DNA from: Syntrophomonas sp. DTU018
GTDB taxonomy: Bacteria > Bacillota > Syntrophomonadia > Syntrophomonadales > Syntrophomonadaceae
Direction of reading: 5' to 3'
NCBI GenBank assembly: GCA_001513155.1
Contig: LFSR01000042.1
Coordinates: 16,961 to 80,960 of the forward strand
DNA length: 64,000 nucleotides
Part shown: one piece after another, positions 6,161 to 61,196 of the stretch
Numbering within the stretch: position 1 is the first letter of the stretch
Layout: each line of letters begins with the position of its first letter
Position numbers and translations under genes: made by a program
Notes under the pieces: model-generated
The model's input: the letters and a program-made list of their open reading frames with translations, nothing else
The model's database searches: none
What the model was told of the DNA's origin: nothing

Positions 6161-6452
6161 GGTTGCTGTGAAAGCTGTGAATAAGAGATTGCCACGCCCC
6201 GTCGGGGCTCGCAATGACAATTAAGAATTCCTTTCATAGCGATGACAGGCTTAAGTTTTCGTTTATCGTGGCCTGTTATTCAGGTGACAATTGCGAGCGC
6301 AGCGAAGCAATCTCTAACGATGCCTGCAAATATGTGAACGAGATCGCCACGGCACTATGTGCCTCGCGATGACACATAAGAAAGCTTCTCTGCGATGCCA
6401 CGGCACTTCGTGCCTCGCGATGACACAAAAGGACGCCATTTTCACAGCAATA
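6161..6452. repeat. Repeat cluster A: four ~35-bp core units of the GAGATYGCCACG...CTCGCRATGACA family plus accessory modules
   Basis: Units at 6185-6219 (+), 6283-6315 (-), 6340-6374 (+) and 6391-6424 (+). Outer inverted TTGCTGTGAAA modules lie at about 6163-6173 and 6439-6449. 6239-6277 is the exact reverse complement of 28295-28333. Confidence 0.9.
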
Positions 6453-22811: not shown

Positions 22812-23055
22812 AAAATAAAAAACTTTCGCCCAAGGGACGAAAGTGTTTTTCCGCGGTACCACCCTAGTTAGCCTGAAAGCTCAGCTTTCAGGCTCCCTCT
22901 TCTCCGGTAACGGCGGTAACCGATAGAACCTACTGCTAGTTCAGTTCCCAGCTCCCAGGTGAATTCACCTGATCCTATCCCTGGCTGTACTTCCAGTCGC
23001 GGTACAGCCTCCCTGTAGGGCATCCTATCAGGCTACTTGTCCTGTTCATCGCATT
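22812..23055 (-). promoter_or_regulatory. T-box riboswitch leader, Phe specifier (UUC)
   Basis: Minus strand has a stem I start at TGCGATGAACAGGACAAGTAG. The specifier loop reads GAA-UUC-A (UUC at 22963-22961) and the T-box is GGGTGGTACCGCG (22852-22865). The terminator is ACTTTCGTCCC-TT-GGGCGAAAGT followed by TTTTTTATTTT. Confidence 0.9.
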
Positions 23056-23232
23056 TATAATATGAGACCTATTGAGTAATCAACATCTTATATAACAGAT
23101 AATATATGATGCAACCAGAACTCTCAAATAGCTGCCACAAGGCCTGGGCTGTGTCCACGCTAACGCCCACCCTTCCACCGTAATGTCTGGGGTCGGAATT
23201 AAAGTCATTATATCATACCGGTAAATTCTCCA

Positions 23233-28121: not shown

Positions 28122-28214
28122 TCTAATTTTACCTAATGAATATAGCAGATTTTGCTGTCACCCGCAATCACACCAGCCCTTTCTCCATGAAAAAAGGCTG
28201 CCTTGCGGCAGCCC

Positions 28215-28527
28215 CAGACTGTAAAAGAAGTCTGTTAGCGGTTCGACGTTCGAGATTGCCACGCCCCTCCGGGGCTCGCAATTGTCACCAGTAGAACAGG
28301 CCACGATAAACGAAAACTTAAGCCTGTCATCGCGAGGAGCGAAGCGACGTGGCGATCTGTTAACTCACACCGTTAGTTGCCATAGAGATTGCCACGCGCT
28401 ACGCGCTCGCAATGACACAATTGGGAGCTATTTTCACAGCAATGACACATAAGATGGCCTTTTGGTATGTCATCGCGAGGAGCGCAGCGACGTGGCGATC
28501 TCTTTTAGCAACTTTTTTGACACTCTC
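28215..28527 (+). mobile_element. 313-bp ORF-less element (expanded copy) flanked by a 20-bp duplicated hairpin
   Basis: Termini are CAGACTGTAAAAGAAGTCT ... TTTTTTGACACTCTC. Core units lie at 28252-28288 (+), 28325-28358 (-), 28385-28417 (+) and 28468-28502 (-). Flanking direct repeats AGGCTGCCTTGCGGCAGCCC occur at 28195-28214 and 28528-28547. Confidence 0.85.
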
Positions 28528-28565
28528 AGGCTGCCTTGCGGCAGCCCGGTATTTATGCTGCAATT

Positions 28566-29483
28566 TTAGGGTTGGGTGTTTTTGTTCAGGTGTTTGCGGC
28601 AGCGCTCGCATCCGCTGCACATGCGAATTTTATCTTTAAATACTCTTTTAATAGTCTCTACTGGCTCGTTGCCCAATTCCGCCACATTATGCAGTATAAT
28701 GCGGCGGGGAGAGATGGTTATCAATATACTGATCAAAACGTCGTCAAAATTGATTTCATTTAACAGCATGTCGTCCAGATAATAGCTCATATAGTTATCT
28801 TCAATCTTGATACCCTTTCCGTCCCACATGTTAAATACGCCATTTTCATCCATCATAATATTCACTTCTTGGATTTTGGGCACCTGGGTATCTACAAAAT
28901 AGCGCAGCAGAGTTACAAAGTCGTTGTATTCCTTTTCATTCTTCAGTTCTTCCATGGCCAGTTCTACAGCAAAGCGAATCTCAGTCAGGTAATCTTGCAG
29001 GCAAAAGTTTATGAATCCTTCCACAACCAACAGCTTATTATCATGAATGTAGTCCAAAACCCGGTGGGCAATCTTGTTTTTGCGGCCGTAGTTCATCAGT
29101 AAATTCAGGCTTTCATTTTCATTGCACCGGTTTAGGAACTGGACCGCCTTATCATATACAGTACGCTGTTCTTCCCCCGAGAGGCCCCGGCCAGATTTGC
29201 GGATTTCCTTTTTCACCAGCGTACTTTCCCATTCCAATAAAATGTGCTCTGCAATTAATTCCGACAGTTGATGTTTGAAGATATAAACAATATCTTCATT
29301 ACGAAAAATCTGATTATCATGATTTCCCCGTAATTGTATATCATAGGCTTCTCTGCCGTCTTCCAGTTGCTTTGACAGCATTGAAACGGAATAACCCTGC
29401 TCGCGGATCCATTTAAAACGCTGACTGATCATCTCAGGAAATGCAGTACCACTGGCCGTAGTTATTCGTAAATCATAGATCAT
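28566..29483 (-). CDS. ytxC: Sporulation protein YtxC-like
   Basis: Position upstream of thrS as in Bacillus. ATG 29483 is preceded by AGGAGG. Family assigned by eye. Confidence 0.6.
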   Translation of the reverse strand: MIYDLRITTASGTAFPEMISQRFKWIREQGYSVSMLSKQLEDGREAYDIQLRGNHDNQIFRNEDIVYIFKHQLSELIAEHILLEWESTLVKKEIRKSGRGLSGEEQRTVYDKAVQFLNRCNENESLNLLMNYGRKNKIAHRVLDYIHDNKLLVVEGFINFCLQDYLTEIRFAVELAMEELKNEKEYNDFVTLLRYFVDTQVPKIQEVNIMMDENGVFNMWDGKGIKIEDNYMSYYLDDMLLNEINFDDVLISILITISPRRIILHNVAELGNEPVETIKRVFKDKIRMCSGCERCRKHLNKNTQP

Positions 29484-29735
29484 ATAACGGCCTCCTACTC
29501 GTAGAGTTAGTTTATTATATGTGAGGCCAAAATTCATTATTCAAACCATCTATTGCTTGATATAGCGCTTTTCCTGCATTCTTCGCCCCTGCCTCACTGA
29601 TCGGGTTCTTGGTATTTTATGCAAGAGCACAGTCAGATGTTGCTCCACTTTACTTATGGCATCAATTCCTTAAAATGGTTGTATACAAATTTAACAACTT
29701 ATGAGGGAGAGGGATGGCAAAAGTTGAGAAATCCA

Positions 29736-30753: not shown

Positions 30754-30957
30754 TTACATAACTTCCACATTGGAAGCTTGCGGTCCCTTGGGACCAGTCA
30801 CCACCTCAAACTTAACTCTCTGCCCTTCATTGAGGGTTTTATAACCAGTGCCCATTATAGCGGTGTGATGTACGAATACATCATCTCCCTGTTCTGTTTG
30901 GATGAATCCAAAACCTTTAGCTGCATCAAACCATTTAACTGTACCGTACAAAGCCAT
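30754..30957 (-). CDS. Cold-shock protein (CspA family)
   Basis: [15 protein letters not shown] (RNP1) and VFVHH (RNP2); 67 aa from ATG 30957. Confidence 0.95.
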
Positions 30958-31122
30958 CACTCCAATGTAATAAAACTTCATTAATATCTTGCCCGGTGGA
31001 TATCAGTCTATGATAGTAAAACACTGCTTGCAATTCCAAAATTATTGCTAAATAAAATTTTCAGTACAACTTATGCAAAACATAAAAATGTCCATAAATA
31101 GAGCGGGGTTCCAAACCCCGCT

Positions 31123-31274
31123 CAGACTGTCAAAGAAGTCTATTAGCGGTTCGACGTTCGAGATTGCCACGCCCCTCCGGGGCTCGCAATGACACATAAG
31201 ATGGCCTTTTGGTATGTCATCGCGAGGAGCGAAGCGACGTGGCGATCTCTTTTAGCAACTTTTTTAACACTCTC
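31123..31274 (+). mobile_element. 152-bp ORF-less element (archetypal copy) flanked by a 22-bp duplicated hairpin
   Basis: Termini are CAGACTGTCAAAGAAGTCT ... TTTTTTAACACTCTC. Inverted core units lie at 31160-31194 and 31215-31249. Flanking direct repeats GAGCGGGGTTCCAAACCCCGCT occur at 31101-31122 and 31275-31296. Confidence 0.9.
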
Positions 31275-31348
31275 GAGCGGGGTTCCAAACCCCGCTGTTA
31301 CAACTTTGGCATCTGCATCTGTTATTAATTCCAGAGGAAACCCGGCTA

Positions 31349-32491
31349 TTACCCAAACAGACTGAGGAAAAATCCGGCGGCAACTGCTGATCCTATAACC
31401 CCTGCCACATTGGGGCCCATGGCATGCATCAAGAGGAAGTTGCCTGGATTAGCCTTCTGCCCTTCTATCTGAGATACGCGAGCAGCCATGGGTACAGCGG
31501 ATACACCTGCAGATCCGATGAGAGGATTAACTTTTCCACCCGTCAGTATGTACATCAGCTTGCCCAGCAATACTCCGCCAGCGGTACTGAACATGAAGGC
31601 CAGCAATCCCAGGCCTATTATTTTGAGGGTTTCAGGCCGCAAAAAGGTTTCCGCTACGGCAGTGGCTCCCACCGTGGTGGCCAGAAAGATGGTTACGATA
31701 TTTATCAAAGCGTTTTGGGCAGTCTGGCTGAGTCTTTCTACTACTCCGGATTCCCGGAAAAGATTTCCCAGCATCAGCATACCGATAAGAGGTGCTACCG
31801 ATGGCAAAAGCAGGCATACTACAATAGTAACAATAATCGGGAATACAATTTTTTCAAGTTTGGAGACTTCCCGCAACTGAGTCATTTCCACTTTTCTCTC
31901 TTTTTCCGTAGTCAGCAACCGCATAATAGGCGGTTGAATCATGGGGATCAACGCCATATAAGAATAAGCGGCAATAGCTATAGCCGGCAGCAATTCCGGA
32001 GCCAGCTTGCTGGTCAAGTAGATAGCAGTCGGGCCGTCGGCTCCCCCTATAATACCAATGGAAGCCGCCTCTTTGGGATCGAAACCTAATAGAAGGGCTA
32101 CAATAAATGCAACGTATATGCCCAGTTGGGCAGCAGCTCCCAAAAACAGGCTGGAAGGTCTGGCAATCAGAGGGCCGAAATCGGTCATGGCGCCAATGCC
32201 CAAAAATATCAGGGATGGGTAAATCCCCAGTTTAACCCCTTGATAGAGATAATAAAGAAGTCCGCCAGCATGGCCATCTGAAGGCGGAGCCATAAGGTTG
32301 GCCATAGGCAGGTTAGCCAGCAGCACCCCAAAGGCGATGGGCAATAACAGCAAGGGCTCATACTTCTTCACGATAGCCAGGTAAATAAGTACACCAGCCA
32401 CGCAGAGCATAACAACTTGCTGCCAGCTCATAGAGGGGAAGCCGGAATCATACCATAGTTTTAAAAGGATTTCCATTACAGAAATAGACAT
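31349..32491 (-). CDS. oadB: Na+-translocating decarboxylase beta subunit (OadB/GcdB/MmdB family)
   Basis: Polytopic membrane protein with the IIGGADGPT motif. Confidence 0.9.
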
Positions 32492-35034: not shown

Positions 35035-35109
35035 TGGTGGGCCGTACAAGATTCGAACTTGTGACTTCTTCCGCGTCAAGGAAGCACTCTCCCACTGAGT
35101 TAACGGCCC
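35035..35109 (-). tRNA. tRNA-Val (anticodon GAC), CCA encoded
   Basis: Hand-folded cloverleaf. Acceptor GGGCCGT/ACGGCCC, D stem ACTC/GAGT, anticodon stem CTTCC/GGAAG with loop TTGACGC. T stem ACAAG/CTTGT with loop TTCGAAT, discriminator A, CCA. Confidence 0.95.
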
Positions 35110-39265: not shown

Positions 39266-39330
39266 GATGTTAAAAGAGATCGCCACATTGCTGAGTTCCT
39301 CGCGATGACACAATCGGAGGCCATCATATG
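39266..39330 (+). repeat. Solo half-copy of the repeat element (one core unit plus partial linker)
   Basis: GTTAAAAGAGATCGCCAC-ATTGCTGAGT-TCCTCGCGATGACA (unit 39276-39310) then GGCCATCATATG. This resembles the R-end half of the 152-bp element in reverse orientation. Confidence 0.7.
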
Positions 39331-59032: not shown

Positions 59033-59259
59033 GTCCCTAAGTTGCCGAAACTCCGGGCAGTTGCCGGCAGGAAGCAGGATTTATAATGGCAAGTCTGCAA
59101 AAAAACAAAGGGATAGGTTGTAAAGACAGGCCTTCTGATAGCAGTACAGGAAATCTCAAAAGTAAAAATTGAATTTTGCAGAGAAGATAATTAGGGCATG
59201 GTTCGAAAAAAGGGATTAAAGGGCTCAAAAAAAGCTGCCCCTTGTTTAAGAGGCAGCTT

Positions 59260-59412
59260 GAGAGTGTCAAAAAATTAGCTAAAAGAGATCGCCACGTCGC
59301 TTCGCTCCTCGTGATGACATAACCAAAAGGCCATCTTATGTGTCATTGCGAGCCCCGGAGGGGTGTGGCAATCTCGAACGTCTAACCGCTAAAAGACTTC
59401 TTTGACAGTCTG
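59260..59412 (-). mobile_element. 153-bp ORF-less element (second near-identical copy) flanked by a 28-bp duplicated hairpin
   Basis: The reverse complement differs from 31123-31274 at about 8 positions. Core units lie at 59285-59319 and 59341-59375. Flanking direct repeats AAGCTGCCCCTTGTTTAAGAGGCAGCTT occur at 59232-59259 and 59413-59440. Confidence 0.9.
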
Positions 59413-59501
59413 AAGCTGCCCCTTGTTTAAGAGGCAGCTTATCGAATACTAAGATAGTATATAAAAGGAAACCGGAGTTACCCTTGGGTATCCCGGCGGA
59501 C

Positions 59502-61196
59502 CTAACCTCTTTCCGGTTCAGGAAGGGAATCAGGGCAAACATATCTGGCTATATTACTGCAATGGTCACTGATCCGTTCCAAATTGCTGATGAGGTCGAG
59601 GAAGACCGCACCATTATTCCCGTTGCATATCCTTTCATTAAGCCTGCGGATATGGGACTGGCGGTACTGTTCCTGCATTTCGTCCAACTGTCTTTCATAA
59701 GCCATAACTTTTTGGGCTAAATTCTTATCCTTGCGTTCCAAAGTCAAAAGTGCTGATTCCACTGCGCGTCTGGTCATTTCTATCATAGAAGCCAATTCTT
59801 CCTGGGCTTCATCGGAGAAAACTACCTGATGCTTGGTCGCGTAATCAGCACTCTCGATAATGCTTTCACTTATATCAGCAATTCTCTCAATATCATTCAA
59901 TGACTGCAGTATAAGCTGGGCTTGACTGGAGTCTTCCCTGGACAGGTGCTTTTGGGAAGCCATGACTACATAATCGGTGATCTGGCGCTCCAGGTTGTCA
60001 ATAGTCTCCTCCAGCACTTGCCCTCTTTTAACCAGGCTTTCGTCCCGGGTTTGGAAATATTCCAGAGCATTCTCAAAGGCCTGGCGAACTAATTCTCCCA
60101 TACGCAGCATTTCCCGGGTAGCTTGAGTTAAAGCCACAGATGGGTTGTTCAAGAAGCGGCGGTCGATGAAACGGACTCTGAACTCCGCTTCATCCCCGTA
60201 TTCCTCACGGTCGGGTATCAGGAAAGTAACCACAGCCGCCATCACTCCCACCAGAGGCAAATGAATCAGCGTATTGCTGATATTGAAAATGAAATGAGTC
60301 TGGGCAATCTGCAATTTGGGATTGAGAGTTTCCCAGGTCCCAGAGCCAGGCACTATATTTAACATTGCATTAGTAACAAAGGTGACAAGTTCCGGGAAAA
60401 AGCCGAAAATAAACAGAGGCAGGAAGATAACGGTACCAACCACATTGAACATGAAATGGGTTAAAGCAGCCCGGCGTGCTGCTATGCTGGCACCAATTCC
60501 CGCCAGCAACGCAGTAACCGTAGTGCCTATGTTGTCACCGAACAGGATTGGCACCGCCTGATGATAGGTAACCGCTCCCTGGTTGGCCAATTCCTGCAGT
60601 ACACCGATCGCTGCACTGCTGCTCTGCACAATGGCGGTAAAAATGGCTCCGATAATTACTCCGATCAACGCATTATCATCAATACTGATCATCAGGTTAG
60701 TAAAAAAGGCAAGATCCTTTAATGGTTTCATGCCGTCGCCCATAACACTCAGGCCAAAGAACAGCAATCCGAAACCCAAGACAGCCTGGGACATATTCTT
60801 TGCTCTCTTGCTCCGGGCAAAAAGAAACCATAAAGCGCCCACCCCTATTATGGGCAAGGCATATTCGTAAAGATTAAAACCAATCAAATAGACCGTTACT
60901 GTGGTACCAATATTAGCTCCGATGATTACGCCGATAGCCTGTCTGAGAGTAAGCAATTCGGCATTGACCAGACCTACCGTTAAAACCGTGGTAGCACTGC
61001 TGCTTTGAATCAATCCGGTTACCACCAGACCGGTTAGTATCCCCCGTATCGGATTACTGGTCCCTTTCTCCAAGATGTTTCGCATCCGATCCCCTGCTAC
61101 TGCTTGCAGGCCATCTGACATAGAGCGCAAACCAAACAGGAACAGCCCCAATCCGCCGAGAAAAGAAAATAATACTACCTGCCAATTTACTTCCAA
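59502..61196 (-). CDS. Na/Pi cotransporter family protein with C-terminal PhoU-like domains
   Basis: Duplicated QSSSAT/QSSSAA motifs in the membrane domain and PhoU-type helical repeats. Confidence 0.88.
   Translation of the reverse strand: MEVNWQVVLFSFLGGLGLFLFGLRSMSDGLQAVAGDRMRNILEKGTSNPIRGILTGLVVTGLIQSSSATTVLTVGLVNAELLTLRQAIGVIIGANIGTTVTVYLIGFNLYEYALPIIGVGALWFLFARSKRAKNMSQAVLGFGLLFFGLSVMGDGMKPLKDLAFFTNLMISIDDNALIGVIIGAIFTAIVQSSSAAIGVLQELANQGAVTYHQAVPILFGDNIGTTVTALLAGIGASIAARRAALTHFMFNVVGTVIFLPLFIFGFFPELVTFVTNAMLNIVPGSGTWETLNPKLQIAQTHFIFNISNTLIHLPLVGVMAAVVTFLIPDREEYGDEAEFRVRFIDRRFLNNPSVALTQATREMLRMGELVRQAFENALEYFQTRDESLVKRGQVLEETIDNLERQITDYVVMASQKHLSREDSSQAQLILQSLNDIERIADISESIIESADYATKHQVVFSDEAQEELASMIEMTRRAVESALLTLERKDKNLAQKVMAYERQLDEMQEQYRQSHIRRLNERICNGNNGAVFLDLISNLERISDHCSNIARYVCPDSLPEPERG

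Follow-up and report, generated by a model that had tools for sequence, protein, structure and literature searches.

The locus at the end of the oadB-like operon

The window analysed here is a stretch of 64,000 nucleotides from Syntrophomonas sp. DTU018 (contig LFSR01000042.1, positions 16,961 to 80,960 of the forward strand). The feature under study lies between a cold-shock protein gene (30754-30981, minus strand) and an oadB-like ORF on the same strand. An exact 22-mer, GAGCGGGGTTCCAAACCCCGCT, is present at two sites on the plus strand in the same orientation (Table 1), a repeat for which the number expected by chance is 0 (100 shuffles). The 22-mer is a hairpin that is best drawn with a 9-bp stem and a 3-nt loop (AGCGGGGTT-CCA-AACCCCGCT); in its left copy, a tenth base pair is supplied by the first base of the sequence that follows, and its right copy is 52 bp from the stop codon of the oadB-like ORF. 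Between the two copies is a body of 152 bp that starts with CAGACTGTCAAAGAAGTCT and ends with TTTTTTAACACTCTC, and the two ends form imperfect terminal inverted repeats (TIRs), with 13 of 17 positions matching (CAGACTGTCAAAGAAGT versus GAGAGTGTTAAAAAAGT). No ORF is contained in the body; two spurious ORFs (49 and 58 aa) merely overlap its edges. Its interior contains two inverted 34/35-nt core units that are separated by a linker of about 20 nt, and, as single-stranded DNA, the body folds into a long hairpin (-48.5 kcal/mol; z = -6.7 relative to shuffled sequence).

A preliminary description of this DNA had reported the pair of identical 22-bp hairpins, the ORF-less 152-bp body with imperfect TIRs, the two inverted 35-bp core units with a 20-bp linker between them, and a distance of about 50 bp between the second hairpin and the oadB-like stop codon. 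These observations are confirmed here, with the exception of the hairpin itself, for which the 7-bp stem and 7-nt loop drawn previously are replaced by the longer stem and shorter loop given above.

A search of Rfam gave no match for the element, whether at gathering score or with the limit relaxed to E = 10, and no Rfam 15 family reached its gathering score in the surrounding interval 30950-31400 (best E = 0.9). The only gathering-score matches in the window are a T-box leader (22830-23058, minus strand), located upstream of a threonyl-tRNA synthetase gene, and a tRNA gene (35038-35109, minus strand).

Table 1. Positions in the window of the three element copies, their flanking hairpin duplicates (TSD), and internal features of copy 1.
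Feature	Position	Strand	Comment
Copy 1, left TSD copy	31101..31122	.	Complete terminator hairpin; original T-tract kept on the minus strand; corresponds to the one hairpin of empty-site contigs L004-L006
Copy 1, ORF-less MITE body	31123..31274	+	152 bp; missing from empty-site alleles
Copy 1, right TSD copy	31275..31296	.	On the minus strand the element end is next; no T-tract
Terminus CAGACTGTCAAAGAAGT	31123..31139	+	Counterpart of IRR in full-length IS1182-family elements
Terminus GAGAGTGTTAAAAAAGT, read inward	31258..31274	-	Counterpart of IRL in full-length IS1182-family elements
REP-like core unit GAGATTGCCACGCCCCTCCGGGGCTCGCAATGAC	31160..31193	+	Dispersed family, 10 copies in the window
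Second core unit, opposite in orientation to the first	31216..31249	-	Pair forms a REPIN-like doublet with a long central hairpin
Copy 2, left hairpin duplicate AGGCTGCCTTGCGGCAGCCC	28195..28214	.	20 bp; T-tract retained on the minus strand
Copy 2	28215..28527	+	313 bp; termini as in copy 1, with the internal core-unit array longer by about 161 bp
Copy 2, right hairpin duplicate	28528..28547	.	20 bp
Copy 3, hairpin duplicate AAGCTGCCCCTTGTTTAAGAGGCAGCTT	59232..59259	.	28 bp; T-tract retained on the minus strand
Copy 3	59260..59412	-	153 bp; opposite orientation; 94.8% identity to copy 1
Copy 3, second hairpin duplicate	59413..59440	.	28 bp

Filled and empty alleles

Syntenic contigs of near-identical strains were retrieved from public assemblies via the neighboring cold-shock protein. 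In the alignment of these related metagenome contigs, the window and two contigs (L002 and L003) carry the hairpin, the 152-bp body, and the hairpin again, and three contigs (L004, L005, and L006) carry a single hairpin and no body, reading ...GTTGTAAC|AGCGGGGTTTGGAACCCCGCTC|TATTTATGG... at the site. The filled allele exceeds the empty allele by exactly 174 bp (152 + 22), the aligned flanks of the two alleles are identical save for one substitution in L004, and the boundaries of the empty site coincide exactly with the outer termini of the element. Because the empty alleles have one hairpin, rather than two, and are shorter by exactly this amount, the 152-bp body is a recent mobile insertion that was accompanied by a 22-bp duplication of the whole hairpin. 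No empty site for window copy 2 was found among the related contigs; all of those examined contain it, including those without copy 1. Since copy 2 is fixed and copy 1 is polymorphic, copy 1 is the younger insertion.

Distribution of the element and its relatives

The three copies in the window each lie between duplicates of a different hairpin (22, 20, and 28 bp), and copy 1 is 92-97% identical to copies from other genomes. Four copies, namely L017, L025, and L038 from one Syntrophomonadaceae MAG and L023 from a second MAG, are 100% identical to one another. These identical copies and the polymorphic state of copy 1 argue for a putative source of transposase that is present now or was present very recently. 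When the 19-nt left end was sought in reference genomes, the element was found mainly in Syntrophomonadaceae and in other Clostridia MAGs, one of the MAGs having 12 or more loci. Viral and metagenome contigs were scanned with a degenerate, more general form of the 17-nt terminus. Across these data, family members range from 109 to 313 bp in length and share a conserved 17-nt terminus, CAGA[C/G]TGTCAAA[A/G]AAGT, of which the opposite end is an imperfect inverse; despite the conserved termini, their interiors are wholly different between lineages. An element of about 199 bp is abundant in gut metagenomes among the scan matches listed. The viral scan yielded single matches only, six of which are true short elements, and no autonomous element was recovered in that scan with the degenerate terminus. 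BLAST of the window MITE and of the Oscillospiraceae-type MITE against 72,556 plasmids detected no relatives, yielding just 32-42-nt matches to internal units. Three contigs that were considered as possible full-length elements (L015, L034, and L044) were rejected, as these are short MITEs that have other cargo and are without a transposase ORF. The element is thus short and non-coding, is bounded by TIRs, has a TSD that is defined by filled and empty alleles, and is present in multiple dispersed copies, as is characteristic of MITEs.

The core units of the body are copies of a dispersed REP-like unit of about 34 nt (GAGATYGCCACG-N10-12-CTCGCRATGAC), the 10 window copies of which are located at 6185-6428, 28326-28502, 31160-31249, 39276-39309, and 59285-59375. 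The unit is found alone, in arrays (6185-6428), and within MITEs, and its copies display compensatory changes from ATTGC/GCAAT to ATCGC/GCGAT and a variable inner stem. Viral contig L088 has a similar unit within its MITE. A match of 32 nt (94%) was also identified in a Novosphingobium replicon and, for this reason, the unit may be very widespread.

Several related copies are arranged in unusual ways. In L036 (JAKOQC010000075.1), a minus-strand copy that begins at 183-201 is broken after ...GAAGTTCGA by a sequence that includes a reversed GAGCCGTATACGAGGCCCGTACGTACGGTTC and that, by eye, resembles group II intron domain V. Two contigs of Syntrophomonadaceae MAG DAONVO01 (L012 and L033) both stop within a longer variant of the element, after 183 nt of it (...GCGACGTGGCGATCGTTTGACCAGC); their shared end is a repeat-induced assembly break. 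At 784-815 of L086 (IMGVR_UViG_3300029305_007615), the MITE starts with a perfect 32-nt palindrome composed of two abutted termini, CAGACTGTCAAAAAAGTCTTTTTGACAGTCTG, which resembles an IR-IR junction. Lastly, in L162 (OLOS01000022.1), the C-terminal end of an rve-type integrase/transposase frame (...LIRHYTPRHNGKVERSHRED...) is located about 25 nt inside the terminus, suggesting a truncated arrangement or one that is nested with an unrelated IS.

Length and geometry of the target duplications

A census was compiled of 53 non-redundant elements with both flanks readable, drawn from genomes, viral contigs, and metagenomes among the matches listed. TSDs in this set are 12-33 bp in length (median of 24 bp), and a hairpin whose stem is 5 bp or longer is present in 51 of the 53. 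The TSD ends within 0-1 nt of the ends of the palindrome in 44 of these 51 elements. As judged from loops and from stem mismatches, the duplicates are direct rather than inverted in all 53 elements. A palindrome likewise abuts the 17-nt terminus in 83 of 121 metagenome matches, among the matches listed. The length of the TSD therefore follows the palindrome and not a fixed stagger, and the hairpin, being different for each copy, belongs to the target and lies outside the element consensus. The proposal in the preliminary description that a complete stem, loop, and stem had been duplicated is thus borne out by the empty site and by census lengths that track the hairpin, and the checks that it recommended have returned single hairpins at orthologous sites without the element, flanking hairpin duplications in most copies, and no consensus hairpin.

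Among TSDs that are exact palindromes, one more base pair, mostly A:T, could form outside the TSD in 14 of 22 cases. The joints are therefore inside A/T tracts that flank a G+C-rich stem, and there may be a base preference of the form A|A...T|T at the joints. In L018, L044, and several other rows of the census, the two hairpin copies have diverged by 1-2 mismatches, and occasionally one copy is heavily decayed; such changes in older copies are what one would expect if, of two terminators in tandem, one is redundant.

Two other origins of the flanking repeats were considered and rejected. Site-specific recombination with an att core borne by the element does not accommodate a flanking repeat that varies from copy to copy. 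Nor does insertion into the loop with subsequent snap-back repair accommodate complete hairpins that are present as direct repeats on both flanks (53 of 53).

Relationship to IS1182-family transposases

Among the metagenome matches listed, a coding interior lies behind a matching terminus in two contigs, L099 and L176. In L099, CAGAGTGTCAAAAAAGT adjoins a hairpin, and 66 nt further on is the start of an ORF whose product scores 292.8 bits against the NCBIfam model NF033551, 'IS1182 family transposase' (cut-off of 270), and also matches the Pfam families DUF772 and DDE_Tnp_1. An in-frame TAG is present at 1586-1588 of this ORF with homology resuming beyond it, which could reflect either a pseudogene or recoding. 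L176 has the same terminus as L099 and a complete transposase gene. Full-length ISs also generate perfect TSDs that comprise whole hairpins: one of 30 bp surrounds L211, which is located on a closed plasmid of Sutcliffiella and is annotated as an IS1182 family transposase, and others surround IS copies in viral contigs L214 (22 bp), L215 (40 bp), L216 (25 bp), and L217 (26 bp). TSDs of these five full-length IS1182-family elements are thus 22-40 bp in length versus 12-33 bp for the MITEs.

The terminus of the window element at 31123-31139 is identical to the IRR of L216 and L217 (CAGACTGTCAAAGAACC) at 15 of 17 positions. The terminus at 31258-31274 is identical to the IRL of L176 and L099 at 15 of 17, although this IRL-like end has G and not C as its first base; for window copy 2, the corresponding value is 16 of 17. 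All full-length elements found with matching termini encode DUF772 + DDE_Tnp_1 / NF033551 proteins. Because its termini are identical at 15-16 of 17 positions to those of ISs that encode an IS1182-family transposase, the element is considered, with a probability of roughly 0.8, to be an IS1182-family-derived MITE that inserted at a terminator hairpin with duplication of the whole hairpin.

The preliminary description had invoked an unidentified trans-acting enzyme, in part on the premise that DDE-type ISs and MITEs give only fixed duplications of 2-14 bp. That premise is incorrect, given the whole-hairpin TSDs of 22-40 bp made by IS1182-type ISs, and a candidate enzyme now exists in the IS1182-family DDE transposases encoded by ISs with the same termini. 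The longer, coding copy with the same termini that it advised seeking was found in other lineages (L099, L176, and L214-L217) and only there: tblastn with three IS1182 transposases detected no IS1182 transposase gene in the 64-kb window or in the searched loci of related MAGs. That an IS1182 enzyme moves the element in Syntrophomonas sp. DTU018 is therefore suggested by family resemblance.

A number of full-length copies have flanks that depart from the pattern described above. In L219 (IMGVR_UViG_3300029713_000150), the flanks of a full-length IS1182-type element, at about 1426 and 3085, are AGGTTCGCGCTTTGCGCGAACCT versus AGGTTCGCGCAAAGCGCGAACCT; these share a stem but the loop is reverse-complemented, such that they are inverted and not direct copies, unlike those of all 53 MITEs. 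Template switching and a second event are both possibilities for the inverted loop. In L209 and L213 (Thermocaproicibacter melissae plasmid NZ_CP101828.1) and in L218, differing complete hairpins are located on either side of a full-length IS, an example of such an unlike pair beside an IS1182-family copy being GGCTGATAACATTATGTTATCAGCC and AGAGAAGAATTCTTTGGAATTCTTCTCT. Recombination between two inserted copies would fit the unlike hairpins of L209 and L218. The IS of L209 adjoins a type III-A cas10 gene.

Proposed mode of insertion

The following sequence of events would be consistent with these observations. A transposase would bind the conserved 17-nt termini, and the resulting transposase-end complex would capture a palindromic target, usually a Rho-independent terminator, most likely as an extruded cruciform or as a hairpin on single-stranded DNA. 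In the extruded form, the two bases of the stem would be spatially adjacent though 12-40 nt apart in sequence. If the ends of the element were joined to opposite strands at, or no more than about 1 nt from, the two stem bases, the stagger in the linear sequence would amount to the whole stem-loop-stem (12-40 bp), and gap repair would leave the element between two complete hairpins in direct repeat. Whole-hairpin TSDs of hairpin length fit the cuts near the stem bases that the preliminary description had envisaged in proposing structure-guided insertion; that the target is recognized as a DNA structure, namely a cruciform, is something that we infer from this geometry, as we do the polarity of the stagger.

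A broader interpretation that combines mechanism and distribution is put forward only tentatively, and we consider it rather doubtful as a whole. It would hold that one type of enzyme produces a stagger of 12-40 bp that is set by structure, with IS1182-type transposases that may attack both strands where an extruded cruciform has its base, and that the MITEs form an undescribed, Clostridia-wide superfamily that doubles terminators. Such a superfamily may extend to Oscillospiraceae of the human gut and to prophage-like contigs and may place structured, REP-like cargo in 3' untranslated regions. In a stronger version, the driving enzyme in genomes such as that of DTU018 may be other than a resident IS1182 copy.

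Alternative explanations

A related possibility is that the mover is a structure-specific enzyme, such as an integrase of Cas1/casposase-like type or a nuclease that resolves junctions, and that the IS1182-like ends are convergent or hijacked. The tblastn result for the window and related MAG loci, which leaves the same genome with no transposase found for the element, is compatible with this explanation, and the TSD geometry would resemble, by analogy, the duplication of a whole and often palindromic CRISPR repeat by Cas1-Cas2. However, autonomous IS1182 elements with termini that are identical at 15-16 of 17 positions give exactly the same whole-hairpin TSDs, which renders an additional enzyme unnecessary and this explanation improbable.

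Derivation from an IS of the IS30 family, of the IS1630 / ISMhom-1 type, would account for variable-length duplication of whole inverted repeats, and the IS1630 type is the only one explicitly published as duplicating whole inverted repeats on insertion. This behavior does not discriminate between families, however, and the full-length elements with matching termini are of the IS1182 type (DUF772 + DDE_Tnp_1; NF033551) and none is of the IS30 type (HTH + rve); moreover, no IS30-type gene was seen adjoining a matching terminus. The inverted repeats of IS1630 are 27 bp long. A MITE of IS30-family origin is accordingly given very little chance of being correct.

It is also conceivable that the body is a REPIN moved by a RAYT or by an IS200/IS605-type HUH enzyme, with the outer ends being incidental. 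At the center of the body, a dispersed REP-like unit is indeed arranged as an inverted doublet; this unit is also solitary elsewhere in the window (6185-6373 and 39276-39309) and has compensatory changes. Yet HUH elements have neither a target duplication, which here is 22 bp, nor conserved 17-nt TIRs, and the flanks are varied and duplicated where an IS200/IS605-type element would have a fixed tetra- or pentanucleotide and no TSD. In addition, the termini are conserved across lineages that have unrelated cargo, the boundaries of insertion are at the termini and not at the doublet, and every full copy so far has both termini and duplications, such that the doublet looks like cargo and transposition by this route is highly improbable. 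Finally, a native pair of tandem terminators around a structured spacer, such as the small RNAs embedded between dual terminators that are described for other bacteria (PMC8144298), is already refuted by near-identical strains that have one hairpin and no spacer at the same locus and by recurrence of the spacer elsewhere between other duplicated hairpins.

Probable consequences at the duplicated terminators

All three window insertions are located 3' of minus-strand genes, namely the oadB-like ORF (31349-32491), ytxC (28566-29537), and an ORF at 59502-61196. Only the gene-distal hairpin copies (31123-31101, 28215-28194, and 59259-59232 on the minus strand) have a terminator score and a T-tract; at each site, the gene-proximal copy has the end of the element next to it. 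Judging from this arrangement, transcription probably continues past the proximal hairpin and across the element and ends at the distal copy, and the element is probably transcribed as part of the 3' end of the oadB operon with termination preserved. Terminators would thus represent a low-cost landing site because the distal hairpin keeps its T-tract and termination is preserved, and a mobile element that regenerates the terminators in which it lands plausibly occupies a low-cost niche. At the same time, the 3' end of an oadB-type decarboxylase operon has been altered by a strongly structured segment between two hairpins, and this segment could influence transcript stability or read-through.

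Comparison with known systems

The closest system is the IS1182 family itself (DDE; ISfinder; NF033551), with which the window element shares termini at 15-16 of 17 positions, palindrome or terminator targets, and direct TSDs of whole palindromes. It is distinguished from ISs of that family by its length of 152 bp, by the lack of a transposase, and by an interior that comprises a REP-like doublet and not IS sequence. In ISfinder, direct repeats of 0-60 bp are given for the IS1182 family. Some IS1182 members target palindromes, according to the portion of a review (Siguier 2015) that is quoted in PMC4923244, and IS1272/TnSha1 of Staphylococcus inserts in either orientation into varied terminator hairpins that it recognizes by structure (PMC4923244, PMC5678879). 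However, IS1272, the best-studied hairpin-targeting member of the family, deletes or replaces the hairpin, wholly or in part, with no duplication (PMC4923244, PMC5678879), whereas the window element duplicates the hairpin intact. Since IS1272 deletes the hairpin and ISPse1, another IS1182-family member, duplicates 4 bp, whole-hairpin TSDs are not universal in the family. In the literature searched, no description of IS1182-derived MITEs or of whole-hairpin duplication by IS1182 members was found, nor any occurrence of the terminal sequences of the element.

Precedent for the insertion habit comes from the IS30 family. IS1630 (Calcutt et al. 1999) duplicates whole inverted repeats and generates junction duplications of 16-26 bp, as reported in PMC3317919, and similar behavior is described for ISMhom-1 (PMC7648426). 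These Mycoplasma elements differ from the window element in being autonomous, in their size of about 1.2-1.4 kb, in their HTH + rve transposase, and in their 27-bp inverted repeats. Bacterial MITEs such as Correia, RUP, and MITEAba12 are also alike in being small, ORF-less, and multicopy, with TIRs, a TSD, and presence/absence polymorphism. Classical MITEs have short TSDs of fixed length, whereas those of the family described here are 12-33 bp and are set by the target palindrome. REPIN-RAYT systems have a comparable doublet, internal in the window element, but REPINs are without a TSD and without these TIRs, and the same holds for REP-targeting members of the IS110 family, which also land in extragenic palindromes. 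In Cas1-Cas2 and casposon systems, staggered attacks at both borders of an often palindromic repeat duplicate the whole unit. The resemblance to these systems would be one of analogy only, as the enzyme family is unrelated and no Cas1 is linked to the elements.

These comparisons have practical implications for annotation, in that puzzling loci of the 'duplicated terminator' class, in Clostridia genomes as well as metagenomes, can be explained as IS1182-type MITE insertions and recognized by a palindrome, CAGASTGTCAAARAAGT ... ACTTYTTTGACASTCTG, and the same palindrome again. The 53 MITEs and five ISs with exact junctions, together with one pair of filled and empty alleles, provide a testable set for a mechanism that is biochemically uncharacterized. 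Taken together, the MITE group apparently constitutes an undescribed superfamily within a known kind of mobile element, and its habit of insertion, while poorly described, has a precedent in IS1630 and does not define a new category of mobile DNA.
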